Shown here: positions 2,978-55,881 of the stretch, in pieces
How positions within the stretch are numbered: position 1 is the first letter of the stretch
How the letters are laid out: each line of letters starts with the position of its first letter
NCBI GenBank assembly: GCA_003731685.1
Contig: RCNO01000007.1
Span: 270-57,373 of the forward strand
Length of the DNA: 57,104 bases
Origin: Bacteroidetes/Chlorobi group bacterium MS-B_bin-24
GTDB taxonomy: Bacteria; Bacteroidota; Ignavibacteria; Kapaibacteriales; UBA2268
Direction: 5' to 3'
Made by a program: the position numbers and the translations under genes
Notes under the pieces: model-generated
Databases searched by the model: none
What the model saw: only the letters and a program-made list of their open reading frames with translations
Told to the model about the DNA's origin: nothing

Positions 2978-3051
2978 AGACATCGGATGTTTCGCAAACA
3001 TCCGATGTTTGTGGAAATAATTGTGGGGGCGACCGGACCGGTCGCCCCAGC
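2978..3051. repeat. Composite REP-like element, locus 1 (33-bp double palindrome plus GTAG-type hairpin)
   Basis: AGACATCGGATGTTT-CGC-AAACATCCGATGTTT then GTGGGGGCGACCGGACCGGTCGCCCC, just 3' of glmS. Confidence 0.9.
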
Positions 3052-3061
3052 AAGATTTTAC

Positions 3062-4894
3062 TTATTCAACTGTTACGCTTTTGGCAAGATTGCGTGGTTG
3101 GTCGACGTTGCAACCAAGTTCTACTGCAATGTAGTATGCAAGCAATTGCAAAGGAATTACTGTAAGAATTGGTGTTAGCATTGGTAAAGTATCGGGAATA
3201 TAAATCACTCTTTCGGCATAACGGGTGATGGTTTCGTCGTTTTCGGTTGCAATGGCAATGACACGACCTTTGCGAGAGCGAACTTCTTCGATATTCGATA
3301 TAACCTTGTCGTATATTTCATCTTTTGGGGCGATGAACACCACGGGCATATTTTCGTCGATAAGTGCTATTGGTCCGTGCTTCATCTCTGCCGATGGATA
3401 ACCTTCGGCGTGTATGTAGGATATTTCCTTCAACTTCAATGCACCCTCCAAAGCCACAGGGAAATTGTATCCCCGACCCAAATACAGAAAGTTTCTGGAA
3501 TATTTAAATTCTCTTGCAATTTCTTTTATCTGGTCGGCTTTTTCTAATATTTTTTCGACTTTTTCGGGTAGTTCTTTTATTCCTCGTGCAATTCGTATCC
3601 CTTCGATTTTCGATAGGTTCCGCATCCGACCCAAAAGTAGGGAAATCAAGGTAAGAACAACAAGCTGGGATGTAAAAGCTTTGGTCGAGGCAACACCAAT
3701 CTCTGGTCCAGCGTGAATATAGACACCTGCATCTGTTTGCCGAGCGATTGAACTGCCAACAACATTTACAATTCCAAGAACCGTGGCGTTCTTTTGTTTA
3801 GCTTCCTGAACAGCAGCCAAAGTGTCGGCAGTTTCGCCGCTTTGGGAAATTGCAATTACAATGTCATTTTTCCGCAGAATCGGGTTGCGGTATCGGAATT
3901 CCGAAGCATATTCGACCTCGACGGGAATTTCGCAAAGGTTCTCGATGAGATATTCCCCAACCAAGCCAGCATGCCACGAAGTTCCGCAACCAGTGATTAT
4001 TATCCTATCGACTTCTCGGAGTTTGTCGAGAACGGGAAGCAGACCACCAAGTCGGGCGATTCCTTCTTCAACAATCAAACGACCACGACAGGCATCGCGG
4101 ATTGTCTGCGGCTGTTCAAAAATTTCCTTCAACATAAAGTGTTCGAACCCGCCCTTTTCGATTTTGCTCAAATCGAAATCTACCAAGTGAACTATGTTGT
4201 TCGTACGGATGTTATCTATGGTCTTTGTATAATAATTTTCGTTATTCAAAGTAACCATCTCGTTGTCCGAAAGGTAAATGACTTGTCGGGTATACTGGAT
4301 AATTGCCGAAGCGTCCGAAGCCACGATAAATTCCTCTTCGCCCAAGCCAACTATCATTGGACTGCCACGGCGGGCGGCGATAATTTTGTTCGGCTCATAG
4401 GTTGAAAGCACAGCCAGCCCAAATGTTCCTTGCACTTCGGTCAATGCGGTTCGAACCGCCTCTTCTAAATCCTTTACTTTCTCGTAGAAATAGCCTATAA
4501 GAACAGCAAGGACTTCGGTATCGGTTGCAGAAACAAATTTATACCCCTTGGAGATAAGCATTTGCTTCAACGATGCGTAGTTTTCGATGATTCCGTTGTG
4601 TACAATCGCAATGTTGCCAGAATTATCGTGATGGGGGTGTGCATTAATGTCGCTTGGTTCGCCGTGTGTTGCCCAGCGAGTGTGTGCAATACCAATGTTT
4701 GCTTTGAATTCTTTCCCTTCCAAAACCTTGATGAGTTCTTTAACTTTGCCCTGCTTTTTGAAAGTCAAAAGATTTCCATCTTCGATTATAGAAAGTCCAG
4801 CGGAATCGTATCCACGATATTCTAACCGCTGAAGCCCATTCAACAAAACAGTTACTGCGTTCCTTTTCCCAATGTATCCAACTATTCCACACAT
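3062..4894 (-). CDS. glmS: Glutamine-fructose-6-phosphate transaminase (isomerizing)
   Basis: MCGIVG N-terminus, RGYDSAG, HTRWATHG, SQSGETADT, C-terminal PRNLAKSVTVE. Confidence 0.99.
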   Translation of the reverse strand: MCGIVGYIGKRNAVTVLLNGLQRLEYRGYDSAGLSIIEDGNLLTFKKQGKVKELIKVLEGKEFKANIGIAHTRWATHGEPSDINAHPHHDNSGNIAIVHNGIIENYASLKQMLISKGYKFVSATDTEVLAVLIGYFYEKVKDLEEAVRTALTEVQGTFGLAVLSTYEPNKIIAARRGSPMIVGLGEEEFIVASDASAIIQYTRQVIYLSDNEMVTLNNENYYTKTIDNIRTNNIVHLVDFDLSKIEKGGFEHFMLKEIFEQPQTIRDACRGRLIVEEGIARLGGLLPVLDKLREVDRIIITGCGTSWHAGLVGEYLIENLCEIPVEVEYASEFRYRNPILRKNDIVIAISQSGETADTLAAVQEAKQKNATVLGIVNVVGSSIARQTDAGVYIHAGPEIGVASTKAFTSQLVVLTLISLLLGRMRNLSKIEGIRIARGIKELPEKVEKILEKADQIKEIAREFKYSRNFLYLGRGYNFPVALEGALKLKEISYIHAEGYPSAEMKHGPIALIDENMPVVFIAPKDEIYDKVISNIEEVRSRKGRVIAIATENDETITRYAERVIYIPDTLPMLTPILTVIPLQLLAYYIAVELGCNVDQPRNLAKSVTVE

Positions 4895-4926
4895 TTTTTT
4901 AATTTGGAATTTGGTTTTATAAAAAA

Positions 4927-6822
4927 ATGCAAATTAATTTAAATAGAATACTTAATCACAACCCGATATTAAAACTTTTATTGTTTGTTCCAATTGGAAT
5001 CTCAATTGGCTTTACAATTCCACACCAGTTTTTATTCCCAATTTTAATTGCACTTTCAATTTTTGCCCTGATTTTTTTGCAATTCAAACAAAGAACGCCA
5101 TCCTACATACTGATTACCATTGCTATCGGATTGATTCTTTCGGTTAACTTCAAACACTTCAAACTCTTGAGTACAACAGATAAATTTCAAGAAGTTAAAG
5201 GAAAAATCTATGGTGAAATAACCGAAGTTTTTGCTTCTGAACCCGATTTTGCCTCTGTTCGGATTGTTGGAACAATTTCGCTTGGGAATCAGACATATAA
5301 TGATGTTCCAGCCCTTCTTAAAATTTACTCAAAAAAAAACACTTTGAGGAAATTTAGAGCAAACGCCAAAATTCTTGCTATTGCAAGCATAAGACCACCG
5401 AGAAGAACCAATCTGCCCACCGATATCGCAGAAATTCCGCTTGCTTTAAGCCACGAAGTTTTACTTTTTGCTCGAACTTCCAATGATTTGATTATAAGAT
5501 TTTGGGAAAGTCCCGTCACAGCGGAAAACATCTTTGCCCGATTGAGAGAGAAACTTGAATCGAATTTGAACAAAATGTTCTCGGCGGAATATTTCCCATA
5601 TTTCGATGAGATGCTTCTTGGAAATAAGCAATTACTCGAGGGCGAGCAACGGGACAAGTTCGCAATAACTGGCATTTCGCATCTTCTTTCGATAAGTGGA
5701 TTCCATTTCGGCATTGTCTTTGCAATTGTCTTTGCCCTGTTTTCGATTTTTCCAAACAAATGGGTCAGATTTGTCTTATTGTCATTATTTATGTTTTTTT
5801 ACCTTTATATTATCGACTTTCCCCCTTCGGGAATTAGAGCATTCATTATGATTGCTGCATTCCTTTATGCAAATACACTGGAAAGAAAAGTTTCGCCCTA
5901 CAATGTTCTTGCTATCATCATTTTAGTTATGTTGATTTTAAAACCAAGTTTATTGTTTTCTGTGGGTTTTCAATTGTCTTTTCTGGCAGTTTTGGGAATA
6001 ATTATGTTTCAAAAAAGGATTTACACTGGGTTGGCAAAAGCCTTGCCCGTGCGAAACGCCGTTACAAATTTCCTGCTTATGCTTTTGTCTGTAACCATTT
6101 CAGCCCAGTTGTTTGTTTCGCCTGTGGTTGCCTACTACTTTGGTTATTACACATTTATCTCCTTCTTTTCCAACTTGGTTTTAGTGCCAATTTTCAGCAT
6201 ATCACTGACTTTTGCCTTTCTGGCAATGCTCTTTTCTGTTGCAACTATTGAAATCGGGGAAATTTTTGCCGTCCCAGCCGAAATCCTTCTCTCGTTGGGT
6301 GTCAAATTCAACAATATCTTGGCGGAAAAGTTAAGTCCTTTGGTTATCAACAACAATGGGGTAGTTCTGCTCTCGATTTTGCTTTCCGTATTGATTATCT
6401 GGGTTTTGTTCGCCAAAACATTCAAATCTTTTGTTTTCCGATTCGGTGCGTTAATTCTTCTTCTTATCGGGTTCGCTTTGAATCTAAATGATGGAAATGG
6501 GAAGGAGATAGAAATTTATCCAAGAGCAAAGTATGTAGCGTTGATTTTCAAGAATTCTGGCAAGAACTATTGCTTGCTTTTCGACCGCAAGCCACATCTT
6601 TTCCCTTCACGGGATTTGGCAATGGAAAAATACATTTCTCGGCTCAATGGTGATGTAATTTTGGCTGTAAATGGCAATGTTGGTATTGCTATTAGCGACC
6701 AAATAAAAAAACAACGAATGATTAGAATCGTCGAAGTCCCTTCGGATGTTCAATTTGCTATATCTAATGCACTTGGAAAAAACCAAAGTATTTTCAAACT
6801 TGGGTTAGGCGATGACGATTAA
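4927..6822 (+). CDS. comEC: ComEC/Rec2 family competence membrane protein
   Basis: Multi-TM; TGISHLLSISGFH, PSGIRA, GFQLSFLAV motifs. Confidence 0.9.
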   Translation: MQINLNRILNHNPILKLLLFVPIGISIGFTIPHQFLFPILIALSIFALIFLQFKQRTPSYILITIAIGLILSVNFKHFKLLSTTDKFQEVKGKIYGEITEVFASEPDFASVRIVGTISLGNQTYNDVPALLKIYSKKNTLRKFRANAKILAIASIRPPRRTNLPTDIAEIPLALSHEVLLFARTSNDLIIRFWESPVTAENIFARLREKLESNLNKMFSAEYFPYFDEMLLGNKQLLEGEQRDKFAITGISHLLSISGFHFGIVFAIVFALFSIFPNKWVRFVLLSLFMFFYLYIIDFPPSGIRAFIMIAAFLYANTLERKVSPYNVLAIIILVMLILKPSLLFSVGFQLSFLAVLGIIMFQKRIYTGLAKALPVRNAVTNFLLMLLSVTISAQLFVSPVVAYYFGYYTFISFFSNLVLVPIFSISLTFAFLAMLFSVATIEIGEIFAVPAEILLSLGVKFNNILAEKLSPLVINNNGVVLLSILLSVLIIWVLFAKTFKSFVFRFGALILLLIGFALNLNDGNGKEIEIYPRAKYVALIFKNSGKNYCLLFDRKPHLFPSRDLAMEKYISRLNGDVILAVNGNVGIAISDQIKKQRMIRIVEVPSDVQFAISNALGKNQSIFKLGLGDDD

Positions 6823-7603
6823 CTTAATTGTTCCAAATATTTTCCCAAAGGACAAAATTTTGGCTGGTGTTACAGAACGAAACTGCCATATTTATCCCGA
6901 TGGCTTATCTTTTGGAATTACCGAACACTTTGACTCCCAAACAGTTCGAAAGCATCGCAAATTGCTTGCAGATTATCTTGGAGTGAAAGTCGAGGATTTT
7001 GTTCTTCTCCATCAGGTGCATTCCGACATAATTCATATTGTCGAGGCAATGGAAACGAATGGTTATGGAAAAACCATCCAAAGTATGCCAAGTTCATTTT
7101 CAAACAATTTAGATTCAAATTTCGATGGCGACGCTTTGATTACTTCAATTAAAGGGAAAATTCTTGGGGTGAAAATTGCCGATTGTGCAGGAATTTTAAT
7201 GTATGACATAAAAAAGGAAATAGTTTCGGCTGTGCATTCGGGATGGCGTGGGAGTGCCCAAAAAATTCTACCGAAGACGATTAGCAAAATGCAGGAGCGG
7301 TTTGGCACGAATCCAAAGGATATACTTGTTTTTATCTCCCCCGTGCCAGATGCACAAAAGTATGAAGTAGGGCAAGAAGTTGCTGAACTTTTCCCCCGTT
7401 CAACGGTGATTTCGCCCGATGGGAAATACTTTTTCGACAATCGCAAAGAATTGCTTTTGCAACTGCTTCAAAGCGGAATTGAGGAACGGAACATCGAAAT
7501 TTCGCCAATTTGCACAATCTCGAACTTAAATTTACATTCATATCGCCGAGACAAAGACAAATCGGGACGAATGCTTGCCTTTATTGGAATGAAAACAACA
7601 TAA
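6812..7603 (+). CDS. pgeF: Peptidoglycan editing factor PgeF / YfiH laccase-domain protein
   Basis: QVHS, DALIT, ADC, AVHSGWRG, CT...SYRR...GR motifs. Confidence 0.92.
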   Translation: MTINLIVPNIFPKDKILAGVTERNCHIYPDGLSFGITEHFDSQTVRKHRKLLADYLGVKVEDFVLLHQVHSDIIHIVEAMETNGYGKTIQSMPSSFSNNLDSNFDGDALITSIKGKILGVKIADCAGILMYDIKKEIVSAVHSGWRGSAQKILPKTISKMQERFGTNPKDILVFISPVPDAQKYEVGQEVAELFPRSTVISPDGKYFFDNRKELLLQLLQSGIEERNIEISPICTISNLNLHSYRRDKDKSGRMLAFIGMKTT

Positions 7604-7616
7604 GTTCAATCTGAAA

Positions 7617-7685
7617 AGACATCGGATGTTTTGCAAACATCCGATGTCTGGGGAATTGTAGGTGCGACGGGCCGGTAGCCCCTAC
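7617..7685. repeat. Composite REP-like element, locus 2
   Basis: AGACATCGGATGTTT-TGC-AAACATCCGATGTCT plus GTAGGTGCGACGGGCCGGTAGCCCCTAC between convergent genes. Confidence 0.9.
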
Positions 7686-8420
7686 TTAGACCAAAGAGTA
7701 TTTAAGATTAAAGAATATGCAATCTTCGCGCTTGCAGGAGCGATTGCGGAGCGAAAAGTTGCATTTCGCCTCGCTCACAGGCAAAAGTATGCCATATTTC
7801 TGGCGAAGGAACTCGGTGGCTTCTTCGAGTGCAATGTATGTATCGCGCTTACAGCAACGGGGACTACCGAGCTCTGCAATTCGCTTTAAACTATTCGAAA
7901 CGATTAGATTACCTTCGGTCCAAGAATTTTCGTCCTCGGGGTCGAGTCCTTTCCAAACAATTAAAAAAATCGAAGTTCCGAGAGCCGCTCCGCAAGTTCC
8001 CAGATGCCAGCTGCAAGTGGGAGCGAATTTCGTTGCAAGGTCTTCGGCTTTCTGGATTTGCTCTTCCAGTTCGTTTCGGGAGTTTGTATAGTTTGCAACT
8101 ACCGTTAAAAGCACAGCGGGGGTGATAAAGTGATGATCAGGCCCGTGCATTTTAATCGCTGGCGATGCCATTATCTCCATTGCCAAGTCGATTGGGTCTG
8201 TTTTAGCCGAACGCAGGCACACCAGCTTGACAATTTCTTTTGCTTCGAGCTTCAGGCAATCGTCGCAAACATAGTGGTTTTCGACGCAAGCCGAATCAGC
8301 CAAAAAAGTTTTCCCGCAGAAGGAACACTCCGCAGATACTGGCTTTACAAGATGGATAACCTCGTTCCCGCAAACAAGGCAATAGTTTTCGTTCTCTATT
8401 GAATTTTTTGTCTGTTCCAT
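7686..8420 (-). CDS. Cys-rich DUF5714-like protein with N-terminal zinc-ribbon-like region
   Basis: CLVCG, CSFCG, C-x3-HYVCDDC, MHGPDHH, GTCGAA, PRCCKR, C-terminal CKREDC. Confidence 0.75.
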   Translation of the reverse strand: MEQTKNSIENENYCLVCGNEVIHLVKPVSAECSFCGKTFLADSACVENHYVCDDCLKLEAKEIVKLVCLRSAKTDPIDLAMEIMASPAIKMHGPDHHFITPAVLLTVVANYTNSRNELEEQIQKAEDLATKFAPTCSWHLGTCGAALGTSIFLIVWKGLDPEDENSWTEGNLIVSNSLKRIAELGSPRCCKRDTYIALEEATEFLRQKYGILLPVSEAKCNFSLRNRSCKREDCIFFNLKYSLV

Positions 8421-8602
8421 TTCGCATACTTATATTTTTAAAAAATGCATTTTACAAAAATTCATTGACATAAACAATAAAATTTTAGTTTTGTACAATT
8501 TTTAATTTTCATTTTCATAAATTTGGGTTGCAAAAAATTTACAGTTTCTTAATATTTATGTGAAAAAAATTAATTAGTTTTGAATTTTTATTATGTGATT
8601 AT

Positions 8603-8941
8603 ATGGCAAAGATTAAAGTCGAAGAGCAGATAGGTGGTGTTGTTGTCTATTTAAAGGGGGACTTCATCGGTGGAGAGGAAACCGATGAGCTTCGTGATAC
8701 TTTAAAGAAACTTGCCGAAGGACCCAAGAACAAGATTATCATCGATATGGGGAAAGTAACCTATTTGAATTCTACTGCTCTCGGGGTGTTAATATCTGCC
8801 CACGCAACGGTAGCCAAGAAAGGGGGAATGATTGCATTGTGCGATTTGGATAAATCGGTTGAAAATCTTTTTGTGATTACTAAATTGACACTTGTATTTC
8901 CAATTTATCCTAATTTAGAAGAAGCAATTAAAAGTTTATAG
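8603..8941 (+). CDS. STAS domain anti-sigma factor antagonist
   Basis: IIDMGKVTYLNSTALGVL motif, ITKL...PIY, 112 aa. Confidence 0.9.
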   Translation: MAKIKVEEQIGGVVVYLKGDFIGGEETDELRDTLKKLAEGPKNKIIIDMGKVTYLNSTALGVLISAHATVAKKGGMIALCDLDKSVENLFVITKLTLVFPIYPNLEEAIKSL

Positions 8942-8974
8942 AATTATGTTCAATAATATTAATGAAGGGATTAT

Positions 8975-9757
8975 ATGAAACGGTTATTTAATGTTATCGT
9001 AATAACATTAGCACTAATCATCGCCTTTTCGATTTACTTTTTCTATTTTGGCAATCCGAACAATTTCGAAGACCCTGCAACAAAGAAGAAACCCAAGAAA
9101 GGTAGCGTTGTTGGAGCAATTTACACTGGCGGTCCAATCGTTGGAATATTGATGAGCTTGATTATTATCGCAATTACATTTGTTTTCGAGCGAACATTTT
9201 CGATTAACAAGGCACGCGGGAAAGGGGATACAGCAGTATTTGTTAAAAAAGTTCTCGATTATCTTGCGAAAGGAGAGTTCGACGCCGCCTTGAAGGAATG
9301 TGACAACCAGCGCGGTAGTCTGGCTAACATACTACGCGCTGGGATAGAACGGTTCAAGCAGGTCGAAAACGACCCGAACTTCCCTGTCGAAAAGAAATTG
9401 ACAGAAGTTCAAAGAGCAATCGACGAGGCAACGAATTTGGAGACTCCTCTGCTCGAAAAGAATCTGGTTATCCTTTCGACGATTGCTTCCGTGTCGGTTT
9501 TGTTCGGTCTTTTGGGAACAACTATCGGTATGATTCGTGCATTTGCTGCTTTTGGCGAAACGGGAACAGTCGATGCTACCCAGCTGGCTATTGGTATTTC
9601 CGAAGCTCTTTATAACACGGCTGGTGGTTTGGCTGCTGCAATCATCGCCATTATCTTCTTTAACTTCTTTACCACACGGGTCGATAATTACTTGTATATG
9701 ATAGATGAAGCAATTCTTAATGTAACTCAAATCTTTACATTAAGATTGAAACAATAG
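8975..9757 (+). CDS. exbB: MotA/TolQ/ExbB proton channel protein
   Basis: GLLGTTIGMIRAF, GISEALYNTAGGL. Confidence 0.92.
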   Translation: MKRLFNVIVITLALIIAFSIYFFYFGNPNNFEDPATKKKPKKGSVVGAIYTGGPIVGILMSLIIIAITFVFERTFSINKARGKGDTAVFVKKVLDYLAKGEFDAALKECDNQRGSLANILRAGIERFKQVENDPNFPVEKKLTEVQRAIDEATNLETPLLEKNLVILSTIASVSVLFGLLGTTIGMIRAFAAFGETGTVDATQLAIGISEALYNTAGGLAAAIIAIIFFNFFTTRVDNYLYMIDEAILNVTQIFTLRLKQ

Positions 9758-9773
9758 CCAAAAGGAGGCAGTC

Positions 9774-10313
9774 GTGCCAAAAATTAAAAAGAAAAGGATG
9801 GGATTTGTAATCGACCTAACTCCATTGGTCGATATTACATTCCTTTTGTTGACTTTTTTGATGTTTACAGCAAAGTTCAAATCCGAAGCAGAAGCCGAAA
9901 AGCAATTCACAATTCGTCGTCCTACTGCTTCTCCCGATACAACTCGTCTTCCTGAACGTGACCTTGCCATTATCAACATTGCTATCGATGATAAAAATCC
10001 GAACGACACTTCATACTACTATGGCTTAACAAACACGAAGGACTTACTTCAGGTTTATCAACTTGTGCCCGAAATTCCACAGGAATACTACAATAAAGCT
10101 CTTGTCAAAGTTGATACAACGGTGCTGGGCAAATTAATCCGTGCAACTCTTTCGGTGCGGAGTTCCACCCGCTTTGCAATCGATGCAGACCGAAGGGTAC
10201 GATACAAATGGGTTGAAGATGCTATGAACATAATGCGAAGGAATCGTGCTTTCGTGTTTAATTTCGTAACCGATAAGCGACGAGCGGAAGAAGAAAAAGC
10301 AGGTGGCAAATAA
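9774..10313 (+). CDS. exbD: Biopolymer transporter ExbD/TolR
   Basis: IDLTPLVDITFLLLTFLM; IDAD motif. Confidence 0.9.
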   Translation: MPKIKKKRMGFVIDLTPLVDITFLLLTFLMFTAKFKSEAEAEKQFTIRRPTASPDTTRLPERDLAIINIAIDDKNPNDTSYYYGLTNTKDLLQVYQLVPEIPQEYYNKALVKVDTTVLGKLIRATLSVRSSTRFAIDADRRVRYKWVEDAMNIMRRNRAFVFNFVTDKRRAEEEKAGGK

Positions 10314-10391
10314 GAATAATTTTTTGAGTTTTTCGTGTAACTTTTTGGTGTATTATTTGTTTAAATATTTGGAAAACATAGGAGAATAAAA

Positions 10392-10982
10392 ATGGCTGGT
10401 GGTGGTGGCGCACTCGAAATACCCGAAAGGCAAAAACGGGGCAAAATAGTTAGAAGAAAAAAGAAAAAGAGAATTGGCTTTCGTATAGATTTAACTCCAT
10501 TGGTCGATATTACTTTTCTTTTGCTAACGTTCTTTATGTTCACTACGACTATGCTGAAGCCCCAAATAATGGAGATGAGAATACCGCCCGAGATGTATGC
10601 CAAAGTCGAAGTTCGTGCTTCCGAGCTTTTAACTTTGATGTTGACTGCCGATAATAAATTATATTGGTACAAAGGAATTGCCGATGCCAATAACAAGCCG
10701 CAAGAAATTCCCATCCCCAAGCTTCGTGCTTTGGTAATCGAAAAAAATCTTGAACCAATGGTAAAGAACCGTTTGATTACAGTTTTGAAGATTTCCCCCG
10801 ATGCCAATTATGCCAAAGTAATTCAAGTTCTCGATGAGCTAAATCTTGCTGAAATACCGATTACCGAAGCCTTGTCGAAGGAAGTTGACGAAAAAGGGGA
10901 ACCAGTGAAACGACAAAGAAAATTTACAATTGCGCCTTTGACAGAAGAAGATTTGAAATTAATACAAGGGGAGGTAAAATGA
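10392..10982 (+). CDS. exbD: Biopolymer transporter ExbD/TolR (second copy)
   Basis: RIDLTPLVDITFLLLTFFMFTTT; VLDEL. Confidence 0.9.
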   Translation: MAGGGGALEIPERQKRGKIVRRKKKKRIGFRIDLTPLVDITFLLLTFFMFTTTMLKPQIMEMRIPPEMYAKVEVRASELLTLMLTADNKLYWYKGIADANNKPQEIPIPKLRALVIEKNLEPMVKNRLITVLKISPDANYAKVIQVLDELNLAEIPITEALSKEVDEKGEPVKRQRKFTIAPLTEEDLKLIQGEVK

Positions 10983-11761
10983 CAAACAAAGTTATCGAAC
11001 TACCGCCCCAACCCACTTATGGGTTTGCAGAATTGAAGTTGGTGATTCCACGGAACACAATGCGTGGATTCATCATCACTGTTTCGATTATCCTATTGCT
11101 TCTACTTGCCTATTTCATATATGCAAAAGCCAGCGAGCGAAGTCAGGTCGCATTGCTAAGAGCCCCAATAAGCAAAATAACACTTGGCGGTCCTGTGCAA
11201 CAACTCGAAGAGCAGAAAGAAGATGCACCGCCTCCGCCACCTACGCAGCAGTTTATGGAAATTGCGACCGCTGCGAAAGCAGGAACCCCCGTGCCAGTTC
11301 CTGATGCAGAAATCAAGGAGGATTTGAAAGAATTTGCGACTTTCGAAAAACTTAGCGAATCGCTTGCTCGCGAAAAAGGTCAGGAAATCGACATTAATCA
11401 ACTGCCGCAAGATTTTAATCTTGACCAAAAAGTTGAAATCAAGCAGAAAGAAGAAGAGCCTAACATCGACGAATTCATACCCGTCGAGAAGGAACCATAC
11501 ATCGATTTGGCAGACTTGCAAAAGCGAATCGTCTACCCCGAGATGGCTCGCAAAGCTGGTATCGAAGGGCAGGTTGTTGTTCGTGTACTTGTCGACAAGA
11601 ACGGGAAGCCAAAGAAAGTCGTGGTTCAATCTTCCGATTCGCAGATGTTGAACCAAGCAGCTATCGATGCGGTAATGAAATCCACCTTTACACCAGCAAT
11701 TCAGAACGGACAACCTGTTATGTGTTGGGTTAGCATCCCAATCCGCTTTAAGTTAAGGTAA
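10979..11761 (+). CDS. tonB: Energy transducer TonB
   Basis: N-terminal TM, PPPPP linker, YPEMARKAGIEGQVVVRVLVDKNG, FTPAIQNGQPV. Confidence 0.92.
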   Translation: MTNKVIELPPQPTYGFAELKLVIPRNTMRGFIITVSIILLLLLAYFIYAKASERSQVALLRAPISKITLGGPVQQLEEQKEDAPPPPPTQQFMEIATAAKAGTPVPVPDAEIKEDLKEFATFEKLSESLAREKGQEIDINQLPQDFNLDQKVEIKQKEEEPNIDEFIPVEKEPYIDLADLQKRIVYPEMARKAGIEGQVVVRVLVDKNGKPKKVVVQSSDSQMLNQAAIDAVMKSTFTPAIQNGQPVMCWVSIPIRFKLR

Positions 11762-11779
11762 GAAGGTTATTTCCGAATT

Positions 11780-11813
11780 AAAGGGACTGCCTCGTAAAGG
11801 CAGTCCCTTTTTT
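11780..11813 (+). terminator. Intrinsic terminator after tonB
   Basis: AAAGGGACTGCCT-loop-AGGCAGTCCCTTT followed by a T run. Confidence 0.88.
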
Positions 11814-11861
11814 GTTTAATTCATTTATCTTGGAATTTTTTTCTGCAAAATGGCATCTTAA

Positions 11862-12019
11862 AGACATCGGATGTTTTTGAAACATCCGATGTCTGGAAAA
11901 TGCACAAGGGTGAAAAAGTTGAAAAGGCTGGTGAAAGAGGTGGCATTGCTTGGTTAAGAAAAAGTTGTCGCCTCTGCCCTGCAAAAGACATTGCCTGTTT
12001 TTTGAAACATCCGATGTCT
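11862..12019. repeat. REP-like element, locus 3 (two double palindromes, the second degenerate)
   Basis: 11862-11894 AGACATCGGATGTTTTTGAAACATCCGATGTCT; 11986-12019 degenerate copy preceded by the GCCCTGCAAA linker end. Confidence 0.85.
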
Positions 12020-12089
12020 CATTTTTTAGTTGTCAAACTCTTCTAATCAATTCCAGATAGCAGGATAAATTTGGAAGTGGCTCAAGCCC

Positions 12090-13175
12090 TTAGCATATTC
12101 GGGCGAAGCTTTGCGAAAGGTAATTCGAGATGAGCTCTACCAATGTGATTACTTTTGGATAGTTCATTCGTTTGGGTCCGAGCAAGCCAATGTAGCCAGT
12201 GGCGTTCCTAATCCAATATGGAGAGGCTATGATTGAATAATCCAAAAGTAATTCGTTGCCAGTTTCGGAGCCAATTAAAACAGTCAGATTCGGATTGTTC
12301 TTTTTGAATTGATTTATGACATTCAGTATTGTTTGCGTGTTTTCCAAAATTGTAATCATATTTTTTATATGGTCGGGATTTTGAAATTCTGGGTAAAGAA
12401 GCAGGTTTCGGGCTCCTGCGATAAATGTTCGCTCGTAATCTTGTAGATTTTCTTGAATCTTATCGAAAATATTAATTATCAACTTAATTATTGGCGAATC
12501 TTGATACTCGGAAACAGCAAACAGGTCGGAAAAATTTTCGTAAATGAATCTCAGCGTTTTACCAGAAATTTTTTCATTCACAAATTGAGAAACTTTTTCA
12601 ATTTGGTCTTCTTCGACATCAATATTTGCATCTATCGTCAAAGTATGAATTATGTTCGAATTTAAAGCCAAAACGAAAAGCAATCGATTCGAGGTTATCG
12701 GTATCAATTCAATTTTCTCGACCGTTATGTCTTGGATTTCGGGAACGATGACGATACTCAGGTATTTCGAAAGGACGCCCAGCACTTTGGAAGCTGTTTT
12801 CAGTATGTCATCAAAATTTGTAGGCTCAATCTTGTTGAGCTCTTCTTGGATTTTGCGAATTTCCTTCTCTGTTGGCTTCCTTTGGACGAGCAGGGAGTCG
12901 ATGAAATAGCGATAGCCTTTATCGGTTGGAATTCTGCCCGAGGATGCGTGTGTTTGATGGAGCAAATCCATTTCCTCGAGTTCGTAAAGGATGTTGCGAA
13001 TCGAGGCGGGGCTTAGTTTCAAACGATTACCTAAATAGCGTGCAACCAAACGCGAACCAACAGGCTGGGCACTTGTTATGTAAAGTTGGACAACTGCCCG
13101 AAAAACAAGTTTGTTCCTTTCGCTCAGTTCAAACGGCGTTTCGACTTTATTTATCTTACCAACATTTGGTTTCAT
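12090..13175 (-). CDS. hrcA: Heat-inducible transcription repressor HrcA
   Basis: PVGS, LSPASIRN, THASSGRIPTDKGYRYFID, GLLGPKRMNY; start codon uncertain. Confidence 0.96.
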   Translation of the reverse strand: MKPNVGKINKVETPFELSERNKLVFRAVVQLYITSAQPVGSRLVARYLGNRLKLSPASIRNILYELEEMDLLHQTHASSGRIPTDKGYRYFIDSLLVQRKPTEKEIRKIQEELNKIEPTNFDDILKTASKVLGVLSKYLSIVIVPEIQDITVEKIELIPITSNRLLFVLALNSNIIHTLTIDANIDVEEDQIEKVSQFVNEKISGKTLRFIYENFSDLFAVSEYQDSPIIKLIINIFDKIQENLQDYERTFIAGARNLLLYPEFQNPDHIKNMITILENTQTILNVINQFKKNNPNLTVLIGSETGNELLLDYSIIASPYWIRNATGYIGLLGPKRMNYPKVITLVELISNYLSQSFARIC

Positions 13176-13243
13176 AGCAAAAAAAGTAATATTTTTATCC
13201 TTTTTAAAAGACAAAAATTATGGAAAAATATTTTGGTAATCAA

Positions 13244-14368
13244 ATGAAAAGGGTAGCTATATTACTTGCAGGTGGTTCGGGCGAAAGATTTTGGCCCGTA
13301 AGTCGAAAATCGAGACCAAAGCAATTGCTTGCTTTGAACTCCGAAAAAACTTTAATCGAAGAAGCTGTTGAAAGAATAACTTCGTTTATATCCCCGCAAG
13401 ATATTTTTGTTTTTACAAATGAAATTACTTTGCAACCCATACGTAATGTTTTGCGAAACATTCCACCCGAGAACATTGTTGCCGAGCCATACAAGAAGAA
13501 CACAGCCCCAGCACTTGCTTTTGCAGGAAGCTTTTTGCTTGCAAAGTATGGGAAAGAACTTTCGCCCGATGAAATTTCCGTTGGTGTTTTTACATCCGAC
13601 CAAAGAATTGAACCACTTGTTGGCTTCCAAAAAACTGTCGAGCTTGCTTTTGGTTTCGTCGAAAACAATCCCAAGATTGCAACTATTGGCATAGTACCAA
13701 CAAGGCCCGACACAGCCTTTGGCTACATTGAAGTCCCTGTGAATTTTAAAGAGGCCAACGAAAGCATCCTGCCTGTTGTTCAATTCAAAGAGAAACCCGA
13801 TGTCGAAACCGCTCGATTTTATGTCGATTCGGGTCGTTTCTTCTGGAATAGTGGAATGTTCTTTTGGCGACTCGATACTTTCCTTTCGCAACTCGAAAAA
13901 TATTTACCCGAAATTTATAATAAAGTTTCTTCTTTGGTTGAGCTTTTAAAAGATAAAACCGAGATTCCATTTTCGGGCTCAATTCCCGAAATCGAGAATA
14001 TCTACATCACATTCCCAGATATTTCGATTGATTACGCATTGATGGAAAAGACCCGCGACATTGTTGTAGTCAAATCATATTTCGATTGGGATGATATTGG
14101 CTCTTGGGATGCTCTCGACCGCACCAAGCCGCACGATGCAAACCGCAATGTGAATTTGGGGAATAATATCCTTTTGGATACGCAAAATTCAATCGTGGTA
14201 AATGAATCGACAAATGGTAATATAAAAGTATGTTGCTTGGGGCTAACGGATTTGGTGGTCGTGGTTGCCGACGATGCTGTTTTGGTTTGCCACAAAGCTC
14301 AAGTTCAGAATGTGAAAAAGTGTGTCGAAGCAATAAAACAAGAAGAAAATTCCAGCAAGTGGTTGTAA
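13244..14368 (+). CDS. manC: Mannose-1-phosphate guanylyltransferase
   Basis: LAGGSGERFWPVSRKSRPKQ, EPYKKNTAP, FKEKP, WNSGMF, SIDYALMEK, WDDIGSW. Confidence 0.93.
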   Translation: MKRVAILLAGGSGERFWPVSRKSRPKQLLALNSEKTLIEEAVERITSFISPQDIFVFTNEITLQPIRNVLRNIPPENIVAEPYKKNTAPALAFAGSFLLAKYGKELSPDEISVGVFTSDQRIEPLVGFQKTVELAFGFVENNPKIATIGIVPTRPDTAFGYIEVPVNFKEANESILPVVQFKEKPDVETARFYVDSGRFFWNSGMFFWRLDTFLSQLEKYLPEIYNKVSSLVELLKDKTEIPFSGSIPEIENIYITFPDISIDYALMEKTRDIVVVKSYFDWDDIGSWDALDRTKPHDANRNVNLGNNILLDTQNSIVVNESTNGNIKVCCLGLTDLVVVVADDAVLVCHKAQVQNVKKCVEAIKQEENSSKWL

Positions 14369-14384
14369 AAATGATATATCAGAA

Positions 14385-15650
14385 ATGAAAGTGCTTTTTA
14401 AAAACATTTCATCGCTAGTTACAATTTGTCGAAATGGCGAGCGATTCCTTGCAGGTGAAGATATGAACTACGTTAGCGAAATAAAGGATGGAGCCATCTT
14501 TTTTGATGAAAAAATTCTTTGGGTTGGGGAAACTGTTGACGCAGAGGAACAAATTCGCTTCGGAAAAATCAAGCCCGACAAGATTTACGATTTGAAAGGG
14601 AAAAGCGTTATCCCCGGTTTCGTGGATTCCCACACGCATACGGTTTTTGCAGGCGACCGTTCCGATGAGTTTGCCCAAAGAGTCGCCGGGGCTACTTACC
14701 AAGAGATTGCAGCTCGTGGCGGAGGAATTTTGAAGACCGTGAGCGCAACGCGAAAAGCATCGGTAGAACAACTTTTTGATAATGCTTCTCGGTTTCTGAA
14801 AAATGCTATTGCCCACGGCACTGTTGCGTTGGAAATCAAAAGCGGATACGGACTCGATGTCGAAACCGAACTGAAAATCCTGCGTGTGATTCGCCGGCTT
14901 GCGGAAAATTTCCCTGTGGATATTGTTCCGACTTTTCTTGGTGCTCACGATTTCCCTCCGGAATACCGAAACCGCCCCGACGAATATGTCGACCTGATTT
15001 GCAATGTAATGATTCCGCGCGTAGCCGAGGAAAACCTTGCCCAATATTGCGATTGCTTTGTCGATAAAGGATATTTCACAATTGACCAAGCCCGAAGGAT
15101 TTTTGAAACAGCCACCAAGTTTGGATTGAAAATCCGAATGCACGCCGATGAACTTGCAGACGTCGGGGCTGCGAAGCTCGCAGCAGAGCTTTGGGCAGTT
15201 TCTGCCGACCATTTGCTCTTCGTTTCGGACGAAAGTCTGGACGCAATGCAAAAAGCCGGAACAATTGCAACCTTGCTGCCGGGGACATCCTATTTCATTC
15301 GGATGCCCTATGCCCCTGCAAAAAAGATTTTGCAGAAGGGGATTCCGATTGCCCTTGCAAGCGATTTTAATCCCGGTTCGTGTTTCACCGAAAATATGCA
15401 AATCATCCTTTCCCTTGCTGTAATAAATCTCGGGCTGAATTGCCAGCAATCTATGGTTGCTTCGACACTGAACGGAGCATATTCGCTGGGCATTTCCCAC
15501 CGGCTTGGCTCGATTGAAGTTGGAAAAGACGCCACCTTTGCCATTCTCGATTGTCCTTCCTATCTTGAAATGTTCTATCATTTCGGAGTTAACCACGTCG
15601 AAAGCATCTGGATAAAGGGAGAAAAGGTGGAAATTGATTCAGGGGTATAG
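14385..15650 (+). CDS. hutI: Imidazolonepropionase
   Basis: PGFVDSHTH, EIKSGYGL, FLGAH, MHADE, SADHL, ASDFNPGS. Confidence 0.96.
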   Translation: MKVLFKNISSLVTICRNGERFLAGEDMNYVSEIKDGAIFFDEKILWVGETVDAEEQIRFGKIKPDKIYDLKGKSVIPGFVDSHTHTVFAGDRSDEFAQRVAGATYQEIAARGGGILKTVSATRKASVEQLFDNASRFLKNAIAHGTVALEIKSGYGLDVETELKILRVIRRLAENFPVDIVPTFLGAHDFPPEYRNRPDEYVDLICNVMIPRVAEENLAQYCDCFVDKGYFTIDQARRIFETATKFGLKIRMHADELADVGAAKLAAELWAVSADHLLFVSDESLDAMQKAGTIATLLPGTSYFIRMPYAPAKKILQKGIPIALASDFNPGSCFTENMQIILSLAVINLGLNCQQSMVASTLNGAYSLGISHRLGSIEVGKDATFAILDCPSYLEMFYHFGVNHVESIWIKGEKVEIDSGV

Positions 15651-15682
15651 AGAGGGGATGAGCAGGAGACAACAGTGGCTTC

Positions 15683-15715
15683 AGACATCGGATGTTTCGC
15701 AAACATCCGATGTCT
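15683..15715. repeat. REP-like double palindrome, locus 4
   Basis: AGACATCGGATGTTT-CGC-AAACATCCGATGTCT, perfect 15-bp arms. Confidence 0.92.
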
Positions 15716-15858
15716 TTCCGAAAGTACTTCTGCCTTTCTTTTTTCACGGCTCGATGGAGCTTTACAACTTTGGGGAAATTTTAATAACTTCTATTCTTTT
15801 TAAATTTGTTAATTTTGTAACTCATTTTTTAATTAAGGGTTTATTTTTGGAGTGAAAA

Positions 15859-16014
15859 ATGAAAAGGACGTATCAACCGAGTCGACGGCATCGATTGAAC
15901 ACGCACGGGTTCCGTGCCCGAATGGCAACGAAGGATGGTCGCAAAGTCTTGGCAAGGCGACGCGCCAAAGGACGCTACAAACTGACTGTTTCCGACGAAA
16001 AGAAAAAATATTGA
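15859..16014 (+). CDS. rpmH: 50S ribosomal protein L34
   Basis: Below the ORF-track cutoff; [51 protein letters not shown]; GGAG RBS. Confidence 0.98.
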
Positions 16015-16021
16015 GCTAATT

Positions 16022-16438
16022 TTGGTAAAGTATAAGCTTGAAACTATTAAACGCAAAAAGGAATTTGAACTTCTGTTCCAACAAGGTAAAAGATTTTACC
16101 GAGATAATATCAGTGCAGTTGTTTTGCCCAAAAGCCAATCGGAGCTCGAAGCGGAGAAGTTCCTTGTTCGTTATGCTGTGCAGGTAAGCCGAAAAGTTAC
16201 AAAAAAAGCGGTCGTTAGAAATCGAATTAAAAGGTTATTGAGGGAATCCATCAGAAAATTGGCAAAGGAAGATATGAACGAGAAACTTTTTATTTTTAAA
16301 TACATATTTTTGAACTGGAGTTCGGCTCCGAAACGACCTTGCGAAATCCATTTGGCAGATGTTTTTCCTTTTGCCCACTCTGTACTCGAAGATGCTTATT
16401 CATTCTTTTCCAAAAACTTAGCACGAGGGGAAAATTGA
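16022..16438 (+). CDS. rnpA: Ribonuclease P protein component
   Basis: [22 protein letters not shown]; position after rpmH. Confidence 0.93.
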
Positions 16439-16644
16439 AGTACATTCTGATTGCACTTGTCAAGCTCTATAAACTTTTTATATCGCCACTTTTCCCTCCG
16501 AGCTGTCGATTCTATCCGACTTGTTCCGATTATTCCATCGAGGCGTTGAGAAAATATGGTGCTTTCAAGGGCTTAATCTTGTCTGTTCGACGGGTTTCTC
16601 GGTGTCATCCTTTCCATCCTGGTGGATATGACCCTGTTCCTTAA
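16435..16644 (+). CDS. yidD: Membrane protein insertion efficiency factor YidD
   Basis: TTG start after GAGGGG; [32 protein letters not shown]. Confidence 0.96.
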
Positions 16645-16665
16645 TCAAAATAAATTTGGTATGCT

Positions 16666-18531: not shown

Positions 18532-18553
18532 GGAACAATGTGAAAATGTAATA

Positions 18554-18801
18554 AGACATCGGGTGTTTTAGAAACATTCGATGTCTTTCGTCATTCCGTT
18601 GTCTGAATCTGGGAAGACATCCGATGTTTGCGAAACATCGGATGTCTGAGAAAATCCACAAGGAATTAAACCAAAAGTTCACAAGCAAGGGAATGGAAAA
18701 GACTAAATGGGAACAAGAGGAAATTGCTTCTTGCCGAAAGCGATTTGGCTGGAACAATTTTTCCTAAAATGCATCGGATGTTTTAGAAACATTCGATGTC
18801 T
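18554..18801. repeat. REP-like element, locus 5 (three double palindromes)
   Basis: Copies at 18554-18586, 18615-18647 (central bases swapped) and about 18769-18801. Confidence 0.85.
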
Positions 18802-28100: not shown

Positions 28101-28119
28101 TGTTTCTGCTAAAAATTTT

Positions 28120-41457: not shown

Positions 41458-41507
41458 AGACATCGGAAGAACAGAGACATCGGATGTTTCAAAAACATCC
41501 GATGTCT
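41458..41507. repeat. REP-like double palindrome, locus 8 (plus an upstream half-site)
   Basis: AGACATCGGATGTTT-CAA-AAACATCCGATGTCT at 41475-41507; AGACATCGGA at 41458. Confidence 0.88.
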
Positions 41508-43963: not shown

Positions 43964-43995
43964 GGGAGGTGCAGGTGAAAGAAACTGCACCTCCC
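43964..43995. terminator. Hairpin between convergent mltD and nrfA
   Basis: GGGAGGTGCAG-loop-CTGCACCTCCC. Confidence 0.7.
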
Positions 43996-47962: not shown

Positions 47963-48200
47963 TAGGGGCAACTGACCGGTCCACATACAAGTGTTTTCAG
48001 CTATCGGATGTTTCAAAAACATCCGATGTCTTTCCGCTGGGCTATCGCCGATTATTACAATCGCATTTGACCGAACAAGGGACTTCCAGACATCGGATGT
48101 CTGGCAGACATCCGATGTCTAACCAAAATGAATTCCGTTTGGCAAACGAAATCGGTTTTAGGATTATAATATCTCCTGGGGGCGAATAATTCGCCCCTAC
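47963..48200. repeat. Composite repeat, locus 9: one full unit (hairpin-A-linker-B-linker-hairpin)
   Basis: Aligns with the 218-bp unit at 50211 (GAACAAGGGACTTCCAGACATCGG..., AACCAAAATGAATTCCGTTTGGCAAACGAAATCGG). Confidence 0.9.
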
Positions 48201-50210: not shown

Positions 50211-50893
50211 GTAGGGGGCGAATGATTATTTCGCCCCCTACATTTTTCCCAGACATCGGATGTTTCGAAAACATCCGATGTCTTTTGGCAGGGCAAGCGA
50301 TATTTGTTCCAGATGCATTTCATCGAACAAGGGGACTTCCAGACATCGGATGTCTGGCAGACATCCGATGTCTAACCAAAATGAATTCCGTTTGGCAAAC
50401 GAAATCGGTTTTGGGATTATGATATTTCGTAAGGGGGCAAATGATTATTTAGCCCCTACAATTTTCCCACACTTCGGATGCTTCAAAAACATCCGATGTC
50501 TTGTGGCAAGGCGAGCGCTGTTTGTTTTGGATGCATTTCGTTGAACAAGGGGTTTTCCCAGACATCGGCTGTCTGGCAGACATCCGATGTCTAACAAAAT
50601 GAATTCCGTTTGGGGGAACGAAATCGGTTTTGGGATTATGATATCTTGTAGGGGCGAAAAATTATTATCCCCTACAATTTCCCAGACATCGGATGTTTCA
50701 AAAACATCCGATGTCTTTTTGGCAAGGGCAAGCGCTGTTTGTTCCAGGTGCATTTCATCGAACAAGGGGTTTTCCAGACATCGGATGTCTGGCAGACATC
50801 CGATGTCTAACCAAAATGACTTCCGTTTGGGGAAACGAAATCGGTTTTAGGATTATGATATTTCGTAGGGTGCGAAAAATTATTCCCCCATAC
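50211..50893. repeat. Tandem array of the ~218-bp composite repeat (3 units plus terminal hairpin), locus 10
   Basis: Unit starts at 50211, 50429, 50648 and 50865 (periods 218, 219, 217); six double palindromes and four GTAG hairpins. Confidence 0.95.
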
Positions 50894-50895
50894 AA

Positions 50896-53810: not shown

Positions 53811-53868
53811 GCAAACCTAAATTCAATTTTTTTATTAATTTTGTTATTTTGAAAAATAAATTTTTAAA

Positions 53869-54912: not shown

Positions 54913-54928
54913 CATTTAGAGGTTTCTT

Positions 54929-55585
54929 ATGGATTACTATGTAACAAAAACAAATCTTGCTCAAAAAACAAATCAATGGCTGAACAGAATCGCTCCGTTT
55001 AATACGCACAAACTCGCTTTAAACCCATCAAAATCTGCACTACTTGTTATCGATATGCAAAAGTTTTTCCTCGACCCCGAGTCGCCCACATTTACTTGCG
55101 GAGGTCTTGCGATAATTGATAATTTAAAGAGCTTAATTGATGCATATCGAAGGAAAGGGCTACCGGTGATTTTTACCTGCCACGTCCACGACCCCAAGGG
55201 GATTGATTCTGGGATAATGAAATGGTGGTGGGAAGGAATGTGTATAGAAAATAGTCCCGAAAGTAAGGTAATAGATGAAATTGCCCCACGAGAAGAGGAG
55301 AAAATAATCTACAAGCACCGTTATTCTGCTTTTTACAACACCGATTTGGAAACCTATCTTCGTGGCTTAAAAGTCGAAGACCTTGTTGTAACAGGAATTA
55401 TGACCAATATGTGCTGTGAGTCGACTGCTCGCGATGCTTACTACCGTGACTACAGGGTGTTTTTCCTTGCCGATGCAACAGGTTCTATTAACGAAGAGAT
55501 GCATATTGCCTCTTTACTTAATCTGGCTTTGGGTTTTGCCTATGTTACACACACCCAAGAAATTTTGAATTTTTTGGAAACTTAA
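54929..55585 (+). CDS. Isochorismatase-family cysteine hydrolase
   Basis: LLVIDMQ, KHRYSAF, GIMTNMCCESTARDA. Confidence 0.92.
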   Translation: MDYYVTKTNLAQKTNQWLNRIAPFNTHKLALNPSKSALLVIDMQKFFLDPESPTFTCGGLAIIDNLKSLIDAYRRKGLPVIFTCHVHDPKGIDSGIMKWWWEGMCIENSPESKVIDEIAPREEEKIIYKHRYSAFYNTDLETYLRGLKVEDLVVTGIMTNMCCESTARDAYYRDYRVFFLADATGSINEEMHIASLLNLALGFAYVTHTQEILNFLET

Positions 55586-55724
55586 TTTTGGAATTAAAGC
55601 GTGCCTAAATCAACACTGTTTTTTAAGTTCAAGCGCGGAAGTTTTTGTTTTAAATAAATTTGATATTTGCTCAATACAATCAACCCTTTAAATAAAGATA
55701 GAAAATTTTTCATATTATCGTCTC

Positions 55725-55881
55725 GTAGGGGCGAGCGGCCGCTCGCCCCTACAATTTTCCAGACATCGGATGTCTGGCAGACATCCGATGTCTTTTTGTA
55801 AAGGGTCGCGAACGAGAGTTATTCGGTCAAGCCACCAAATAATTTATTATCTCTTAAGGGCGAATAATTATCCGCCCCTAC
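55725..55881. repeat. Composite REP-like element, locus 11
   Basis: Perfect GTAGGGGCGAGCGGCCGCTCGCCCCTAC (55725-55752), B-type double palindrome 55761-55793, AT-centre hairpin at about 55855-55881. Confidence 0.9.

Follow-up and report, generated by a model that had tools for sequence, protein, structure and literature searches.

BIME-like mosaics in a Kapaibacteriales genome are probably built from two REP classes, each with a RAYT of its own

What are the short palindromes that recur between the genes of a Bacteroidota chromosome, and do they form one mobile element or two? The question is raised by a 57,104-nt stretch of Bacteroidetes/Chlorobi group bacterium MS-B_bin-24 (assembly GCA_003731685.1, contig RCNO01000007.1, positions 270 to 57,373; hereafter the window), which carries a 33-nt double palindrome, module A (AGACATCSGATGTYT-NNN-ARACATCSGATGTCT), and a GTAG...CTAC palindrome of mostly 28 nt (28-30 nt), module B (GTAGGGGC..GCCCCTAC). 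An earlier note on this DNA had recognized a system resembling bacterial interspersed mosaic elements (BIMEs), that is, clusters of repetitive extragenic palindromic (REP) sequences with conserved linkers, and had proposed that two unrelated palindrome classes were joined in one mobile unit. The first part of that view held up, and the second did not. We consider it likely that the window contains BIME-like mosaics in which two independent REP classes are combined, and that each class is paired with a separate HUH/Y1 nuclease of the REP-associated tyrosine transposase (RAYT, or TnpA-REP) kind. Direct support comes from the anatomy and copy number of the repeats, their restriction to intergenic regions, their distribution among lineages, the adjacency of genes and hairpins, the motifs and predicted fold of the proteins, and differences in array length between strains. 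By analogy with known systems, A and B may still be transposing.

Counting at up to three mismatches, we found 22 full copies of A in the window and one decayed copy, in agreement with the roughly 23 reported before. An 11-nt half-motif of A matched 42 times in the window where 0.67 matches were expected, and none of 100 shuffles reached 42, which rules out chance as an explanation of its abundance. The predicted single-strand structure of A is a 3-nt loop on a 15-bp stem, with a folding energy of -16 kcal/mol (z about -8; -8.1 for the perfect copy at 7617). Each arm is itself a 7+1+7 palindrome, and the three loop bases vary. The assembly (2.6 Mb, 38.5% GC, 109 contigs) holds 213 copies at up to five mismatches, of which 130 are perfect, 189 at up to two mismatches (the pattern used for relatives) and 199 oriented copies. 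Among 212 copies examined, 187 lay outside naive open reading frames (ORFs), which cover 88% of the genome; the other 25 fell in short ORFs spanning repeat arrays or in over-extended starts, and no convincing in-gene copy was seen among them. A loci are enriched between convergent genes, occurring in 37 of 193 convergent, 21 of 223 divergent and 62 of 980 tandem intergenic regions. The polarity of A is weak, consisting of AAA...TGR flanks and preferred loops. A short T run lies to one side of each copy, and the oriented consensus of 168 copies of the main variant A1 and 26 of the variant A2 (..GTCT-GCC-AGAC..) contains no GTAG or CGTC tag.

Module B begins with GTAG, as GTAG REPs do, and this tag is paired with the terminal CTAC. 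A relaxed pattern gave 16 matches in the window, comprising 11 true members, three chance matches inside genes and two terminator-like hairpins; one additional partial copy lacks its left end. The GTAG hairpins described earlier are therefore present, in somewhat smaller number than the 13 or so first given. Across the genome, B has 102-123 copies depending on the pattern, and its core defines the subtypes B1 (..CGACCGGCCGGTCG..), B2 (..CGAATAATTATTCG..) and B3 (..CAATTCAAGAATTG..), with B4 (..CGAACCTATGTGTTCG..) seen beside A copies. Both modules thus have the length (20-40 nt), high copy number and extragenic position of REPs. In the window, they occupy 11 loci, as the earlier note had it, none of which falls in any of the 43 retained ORFs. 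Nine of these loci follow the 3' end of a gene (three convergent, six tandem), and the other two lie in divergent intergenic regions (33121-33190 and 47999-48200). Some repeats abut stop codons, again as reported: one B ends at 7685 beside a stop at 7686, and another ends at 50893 near a stop at 50896.

The loci range from a single hairpin to long mosaics. An A with one mismatch (2978-3010) is followed by a B1-like B with a GTGG start (3023-3051), which ends 10 nt from the glmS-like stop at 3062; a perfect A (7617-7649) is followed by a decayed B1 (7658-7685), the copy that abuts the stop codon at 7686. Further along are a perfect A (11862-11894) with the decayed A (11987-12019; left arm lost, right arm intact), an A with loop CGC (15683-15715), and three A copies with two mismatches and G:T pairs (18554-18586), a compensated swap of the central G..C to C..G (18615-18647) and three mismatches (18769-18801). 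A larger mosaic then runs through A2 (23816-23848), linker L1 in reverse orientation (minus strand, 23849-23904), an A with two mismatches (23905-23937), B1 (23946-23973), the partial copy, a B2 (24012-24035), linker L2 in reverse orientation (minus strand, 24036-24089), A2 (24090-24122), a second reverse L1 (minus strand, 24123-24178) and an A with two mismatches (24179-24211). The first divergent region holds an A with one mismatch (33121-33153) and a B1 (33163-33190), and a perfect A stands alone at 41475-41507. The second holds an A with two mismatches (47999-48031), an L1-like linker (plus strand, 48032-48087), A2 (48088-48120), L2 (plus strand, 48121-48175) and a short B2 (48176-48200).

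The most regular locus is a tandem array on the plus strand (50211-50893), in which a unit of B2, 8-9 nt, A1, L1, A2 and L2 is repeated three times at a spacing of 215-218 nt and closed by a fourth B. Its B copies lie at 50211-50241, 50429-50459, 50648-50675 and 50865-50893, its A1 copies at 50251-50283, 50469-50501 and 50684-50716, and its A2 copies at 50341-50373, 50560-50592 and 50776-50808; L1 fills 50284-50340, 50502-50559 and 50717-50775, and L2 fills 50374-50428, 50593-50647 and 50809-50864. The last locus consists of a B1-like B with a GAGCGGCCGCTC core (55725-55752), A2 (55761-55793) and a B2 with a TTAA start (55854-55881).

The two linkers noticed earlier are conserved, with eight (L1) and 16 (L2) blastn matches genome-wide, and we found a third, L3, which is related to L2 and lies 5' of 71 of the 199 oriented A copies. 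On the other side, the TGR side, B lies 5-22 nt 3' of 73 of the 199, in 54 of these cases at 9-12 nt, and several B subtypes take this position. The extended consensus is B2, a linker of about 65 nt, A, about 12 nt, and B. A 261-nt composite stretch, folded as single-stranded DNA, formed six separate local hairpins, including small hairpins within the linkers, and no long-range pairing. It is therefore BIME-like rather than REPIN-like, a REPIN being a pair of inverted REPs that fold together into one long hairpin. The recurrence of L1, L2 and L3 and the three-unit array agree with a BIME; alternating REP orientation is a property that near-perfect palindromes do not allow one to judge. We dropped a clustered regularly interspaced short palindromic repeat (CRISPR) array as a candidate because its 'spacers', the linkers, are themselves conserved repeats. 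A sequencing-adapter artefact was dropped as well, as the loops vary, the variants are compensated, and the copies sit at fixed genomic sites common to independent assemblies.

RAYT genes flanked by these motifs, which the earlier note had suggested looking for alongside a genome-wide count, do exist. A PF01797 search of the assembly gave two matches, on contigs C73 and C108. Against the NCBIfam RAYT equivalog NF047646 (REP_Tyr_transpos, cut-off 80 bits), C108 scored 82 and C73 scored 60, and against Pfam PF01797 (cut-off 23 bits), they scored 33.4 and 22.6, the latter just below the cut-off. The C73 gene (L002:1453-2094) is boxed by B, with four B hairpins within 400 nt distributed over both sides, and by one A. 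Within its reading frame it also has B-like hairpins, placed between the HUH and Tyr motifs, and the C108 gene (L001:1083-1676) carries a B3-like hairpin in frame; the in-gene hairpins of both are of B type only. The C108 gene leaves no flanking room for REPs, lying 28 nt and 3 nt from hsdS-like and hsdR-like ORFs (type I restriction, as read from the sequence alone). A repeated SHRENCKGD peptide at the end of the hsdS-like ORF resembles translated repeat DNA.

The distribution of the two modules separates them. We compared the assembly with 40 relatives, a 41-genome set of the order. At up to two mismatches, A is absent from all 40 relatives, including nine congeners, and so it spread in this lineage. 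B-type 28-nt palindromes, by contrast with A, occur in 19 of the 41 genomes with an inner sequence that varies by lineage; under the cross-genome pattern, B has 73 copies here versus 0-5 in the congeners. RAYT-family matches were found in 26 of the 41 genomes. The earlier description of the repeats as lineage-specific is thus right for the expansion of A but not for its sequence, as the exact A (31 bases) is present in at least 23 other assemblies, mostly labelled Chloroflexota/Anaerolineae or other Bacteroidota, the latter including Neolewinella marina and a Lac Pavin Kapaibacterium (G050). Copies were counted in ten of these genomes: eight had 5-49 copies and two a single copy, often as a lineage-specific variant with both arms changed in a compensating way. 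A vector search of viral contigs gave no match. In five A-bearing genomes searched for B, four had none, and the fifth had two doubtful matches in a search whose control also gave a match. No A was found at 20 Y1 loci or five C73-like RAYT loci across five A-bearing genomes, and the C73-like RAYTs found there adjoin 28-nt GTAG...CTAC palindromes of their own. Its occurrence across the order and beside C73-like RAYTs makes B an ordinary GTAG REP of a RAYT clade common in the order. A and B belong to different REP classes rather than to a single element.

Some of the distant copies of A are translated. In four Anaerolineae leuS genes (L287:1791-4247, L301, L292 and L277; proteins 59-90% identical), A lies in frame at the same loop and encodes (E/Q/K)TSDVS(K/E)TSDV just before the conserved TTRPDT motif, with TSDV contributed by both arms; the LeuRS of the window's genome is shorter by eight residues at this loop. 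In an Ardenticatenaceae metagenome-assembled genome (MAG), A is in frame (GKTSDVSKTSDVW) in a 365-aa ORF (L288:2064-3161) that reads as a putative glycosyltransferase, and the flanks of another A locus, L282, are similar. A-bearing contigs also occur in a MAG labelled Hyphomicrobiales (L274, L291). Their 36-39% GC is odd for that order and they may be mis-binned, so an alphaproteobacterial occurrence of A is not to be trusted.

A candidate nuclease for A was found in relatives. In G050, two A-variant copies about 0.8 kb apart flank a gene for a 166-aa protein with an HUH motif, and 13 A-variant hairpins, four upstream and nine downstream, surround it. Among the loci compared, the best relative of this protein (52.5% identity) is a 184-aa protein (L158:3074-3628) encoded on a metagenome contig sharing 97-98% identity with contig C7 of the window's genome. 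This conspecific gene has A on both sides, 42 nt upstream and 11 and 88 nt downstream. Like the C73 gene with its B hairpins, both therefore have the layout of a 'REPtron', a RAYT gene flanked by its cognate REPs. The 184-aa protein matched Pfam Y1_Tnp at 28 bits (cut-off 23), and that of G050 matched PF01797 at 29.5 bits; their NF047646 scores, 68.4 and 61.4, were below the cut-off of 80. His54, His56 and Tyr125 are invariant in all nine aligned proteins. The HUH motif, Tyr125 and Asn129 align with H59/H61, Y115 and N119 of Escherichia coli TnpA-REP (Protein Data Bank 4ER8), residues named in PMC3479197. An AlphaFold2 model of the A-type protein (mean predicted local distance difference test score 79) had 4ER8_A as its best Foldseek match (E 2e-8, template modelling (TM) scores 0.61/0.67), and the TnpA chains of IS200/IS605 insertion sequences were weaker matches (ranks 2-25, at best E 4.7e-5, TM 0.38-0.47). 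The predicted fold is thus closer to TnpA-REP than to IS200/IS605 TnpA.

The A-type RAYT clade was found in 8 of the 41 genomes searched and, at 44% identity, in one Chloroflexota genome; it was not found in the window's genome or in nine congeners. The genome has 22 A-boxed intervals, and Pfam searches of three window ORFs among them gave a CBS domain for one and nothing for the other two. Part of an A-like sequence is read in frame in the 184-aa gene, between its HUH and Tyr motifs, and a third A-type homologue (L302) carries A in frame. Such in-frame hairpin copies or remnants between HUH and Tyr occur in both RAYT clades (C73, C108, L158:3074-3628, L302 and L329), where they are translated into low-complexity inserts such as VGADLCVCPENADLRVCP and GEHIGQGEHIGSPL.

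At homologues of the A-type gene, the hairpins differ in sequence and agree in design. At seven of 12 homologue loci, we found hairpins of 31-33 nt beside or inside the gene that are unlike A in sequence (AAGTGCCAGGCACTT.., AACCTTCCGAAGGTT.., AACTTTCCGAAAGTT.., AGACCTGTCAGGTTT..) and constant in layout, with a 15-16-bp stem, a loop of 1-3 nt, and arms that are themselves palindromes. In 14 such hairpins, the long stem is 99% paired, a circular figure as they were chosen by a hairpin finder. Palindromy within the arms was not selected for, and it was 92.3% paired versus 72% in shuffles and 28-47% in slid controls; 12 of 14 within-arm pairs had changes on both sides. In some families, such as the G046/G047 variant, the long stem is kept and the within-arm symmetry is broken, which makes the long hairpin the stronger constraint. 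One guess is that a two-fold symmetric stem makes both flanks of a single hairpin look alike to the RAYT. A broader reading, which we offer tentatively and regard as more doubtful than the two-class account, is that A represents an undescribed class of REP lacking GTAG, in which a two-fold symmetric 15-bp stem is kept across lineages with unrelated hairpin sequences. The symmetry might let the RAYT treat the two flanks in the same way; one 33-nt hairpin would then be a complete transposon. The class would have moved between Bacteroidota and Chloroflexota, in Anaerolineae even in frame into essential genes such as leuS.

These data bear on the proposal that A, B and the linkers are one composite unit, moved as a block by a single RAYT of the C73 type, with solo A copies as its decay products. 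B and one A do lie upstream of the C73 RAYT, L3 and B accompany A together in 24 of the 199 oriented copies, the L3-A-B4 composite recurs on several contigs (including C1, C2, C17, C26, C27 and C28), and A and B each expanded in this species (189 and 73 copies, versus none and 0-5 in the congeners). However, 79 of the 199 A copies have neither L3 nor B, and A multiplied without B in other genomes and other phyla, as B did without A across the order. The B joined to the same L3-A varies with the locus (B1, B3 or B4), the hairpins inside the C73 and C108 genes do not include A, and A has a boxed RAYT of its own. We therefore consider the single-unit explanation unlikely.

Comparison with the conspecific strain places the A-type gene at a site in the window itself. 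On the metagenome contig, an orthologue of the amidohydrolase gene (window 14385-15650) is followed by A (loop CAA), the 184-aa gene, A (loop TAA), 44 nt, A (loop CGC) and the right flank. In the window's genome, the same left flank is followed at 15683-15715 by one A (loop CGC) and the right flank, and the gene segment (686 nt, from blastn coordinates) is missing. The earlier statement that no transposase is present in the window is accordingly true of this assembly, but a conspecific strain has an A-boxed RAYT at the 15.7-kb locus. The junction falls within an A copy, which fits recombination between flanking A copies and hence loss of the cassette from this genome; it may instead have been inserted in the other strain. 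In sequencing reads, contigs from four of four runs cover the RAYT piece, with word depths for piece and right flank of 56.8/54.2, 35.9/50, 44.4/76.5 and 4.3/17, and several read joints skip 678-683 nt with sides shorter than 30 nt. Because contigs break at every A and the joints may stem from other A loci, the depth ratios and joints do not establish a presence/absence polymorphism.

Elsewhere, strains differed by the gain or loss of entire units, 107 and 148 nt long, with repeats at their borders. Among 53 comparable A sites, a sample biased to A-bearing loci since the loci were fetched for holding A, 50 were shared, two differed by array units and one by decay, and no new solo A insertion was seen. 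An (AG)n microsatellite also differed by 20 nt between strains (L165 versus C7:68426). In comparisons with the congeners over window positions 2000-20000 (64-81% DNA identity), no orthologous empty site could be aligned. The repeat loci at 2978, 7617, 11862, 15683 and 18554 each form the end of a synteny block with the nine congeners, and the repeats in this region mark operon borders with reshuffled gene order.

Several of these observations, together with a few others, weigh against two REP systems with separate nucleases. Besides the lack of new solo insertions, the A-type RAYT was not found in the window's genome, G042, G044 or G047 and was found only weakly in G045, and the last four genomes hold 12-35 A copies; many A families may be orphans, or the genomes incomplete. 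Among the 12 homologue loci, two carry GTAG-type hairpins (G015, G014) and three carry none, so that the matching of clade to hairpin is not strict, and our view that each hairpin class has its own RAYT clade is to be taken with that looseness. The A that lies among the B hairpins upstream of the C73 gene leaves room for cross-mobilization of A by the C73 RAYT. The lagging-strand bias known for IS200/IS605 is not visible for A: its orientation showed no link to GC skew (windows of 5, 10 and 20 kb; Fisher p 0.63-1.0) or to transcription (40 against 43; also 28 to 22).

Could the hairpins instead be static functional motifs, such as terminators, mRNA 3' stabilizers or protein-binding sites, kept by selection and unrelated to transposition now? 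Termination and mRNA stability are among the functions reported for REPs (PMC3733652). The hairpins here fold with high stability, a short T run stands beside every A, most window loci (9 of 11) are 3' of genes, and 50 of the 53 sites are common to the strains. Three GC-rich hairpins that are neither A nor B, at 11787-11815, 28118-28151 and 43965-43994, lie 3' of tonB-, groEL- and LysM/SLT-type genes and look terminator-like by eye, and a T run follows the one near 11787-11815; the genome thus has such hairpins apart from the repeats. However, the nine congeners have the same operons and no A copies, and so the motif is not needed for those genes. The lack of orientation bias relative to transcription, the tandem arrays of three to four units, and the presence of the same sequence across phyla, also in frame within leuS, are also hard to reconcile with such a role. 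An Rfam search gave no match at gathering score, its two matches (E 0.37 and 0.66) being at chance level. We regard purely static motifs as improbable, although a secondary use as terminators could coexist with mobility of the REP kind.

A last possibility is that A is a minimal miniature inverted-repeat transposable element (MITE), in which the terminal inverted repeats (15 bp each) of a DDE-type insertion sequence stand on either side of a 3-bp spacer. Its architecture of inverted repeat, three variable bases and inverted repeat, and the solo 33-nt units in many genomes, would suit this. Yet there is no target-site duplication, the flanks being AAA...TGR, the compensatory changes of the arms are those expected of a hairpin, and the only A-boxed gene found, with no search aimed at DDE transposases beside A, is an HUH/Y1 gene. 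This explanation strikes us as very improbable.

By analogy with E. coli TnpA-REP and IS200/IS605, two parallel REP systems could operate as follows. Each RAYT would bind the hairpin of its class in single-stranded DNA, cleave next to it by way of a 5'-phosphotyrosine link and rejoin the hairpin elsewhere. A and B would both have expanded in this species and landed in the same safe intergenic spots, and copies would persist where they are least harmful, especially between convergent genes. Recombination between copies would then duplicate or delete, in blocks, adjacent REPs of the two classes along with the hairpin-bearing linkers.

There is ample literature on REPs, BIMEs and RAYTs (PMC3479197, PMC2817692, PMC3116915, PMC3337134). 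The E. coli REP/BIME system with its TnpA-REP, the REPtron of PMC3479197, likewise consists of short, high-copy extragenic palindromes in mosaics with conserved linkers and of an HUH/Tyr gene boxed by its own hairpins. B shares the GTAG with it, and the A-type predicted fold best matches its structure, with the HUH, Tyr and Asn residues aligned. GTAG is required there for TnpA-REP binding and cleavage (PMC3479197). The present system differs in that the GTAG of B pairs with CTAC in a perfect palindrome instead of forming an unpaired 5' foot, that A lacks GTAG altogether, and that two classes with two RAYT clades are interleaved in a genome from another host phylum. The REPINs of Pseudomonas (PMC3116915, PMC3337134) are likewise non-autonomous, REP-derived units of a lineage-specific family, multiplied by a single-copy RAYT, but each is two inverted REPs in one long hairpin, whereas the composite here is a chain of separate local hairpins. 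IS200/IS605 TnpA (2VJV, 2XM3 and others) shares the predicted HUH/Y1 fold and putative hairpin recognition of the A system, but at TM 0.38-0.47 it is a weaker match than TnpA-REP (0.61), and the A system has no insertion-sequence body and no visible strand bias.

The closest precedents are in Di Nocera et al. (2013; PMC3733652), where several REP families with repeat-specific REPtrons are described within one species, GTAG units adjoin unrelated stem-loops in P. putida and P. fluorescens, and REPs are located within genes. The part cited lists GTAG repeats for Proteobacteria, Cyanobacteria, Chloroflexi and the PVC group, and Bacteroidetes only under CGTC repeats. It also describes 'TIRYT' genes, which are RAYT-like and lie between repeats without a tag that are partly self-complementary or 'double palindromic'. 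Such 'TIRtrons' resemble the A system in that a RAYT-like gene is boxed by dispersed repeats without GTAG that coexist with GTAG REPs in one genome; A differs as one 33-nt hairpin with about 200 copies and the same sequence across phyla, a comparison made by description and not by the TIR sequences. What goes beyond the cited parts of these sources is the symmetry conserved in the stems, the recurrence of one hairpin sequence in different phyla, and the strain difference in the RAYT cassette at the window site. One literature text search on motif words found no publications with the A or B sequences, the matches listed being unrelated primers.

The window itself is core chromosome with housekeeping operons, including (by Pfam names) glmS, comEC, exbBD-tonB, hrcA, yidC, PFOR, groEL, murB, mnmE, ileS and nrfAH. 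Its GroEL is 84% identical to that of a Candidatus Kapaibacterium MAG and 77-83% identical to those of other Bacteroidota, Ignavibacteria-like and Kapaibacterium MAGs. Positions 1-2000 have 30% GC, versus about 40% elsewhere, and encode a 617-aa protein whose C-terminal domain is of the AhpC/TSA-redoxin type. A tandem pair of 147-nt units (70% alike) occupies 38565-38858, within an ORF (38337-39494) whose sole Pfam match is a C-terminal DksA/TraR zinc finger.

These findings suggest that two REP/RAYT systems can coexist in a single small genome, with their hairpins intermixed into mosaics, and a composite repeat should therefore not be taken for one element. A MAG may also lack a RAYT cassette that sister strains carry at the same site. 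They point to a RAYT clade with hairpins that do without the GTAG tag needed by E. coli TnpA-REP, and the dyad symmetry of their stems is open to direct testing in vitro. Finally, the same 31-base hairpin core in distant phyla, sometimes translated in leuS, argues for horizontal spread of a REP system of a kind usually described as vertically inherited.

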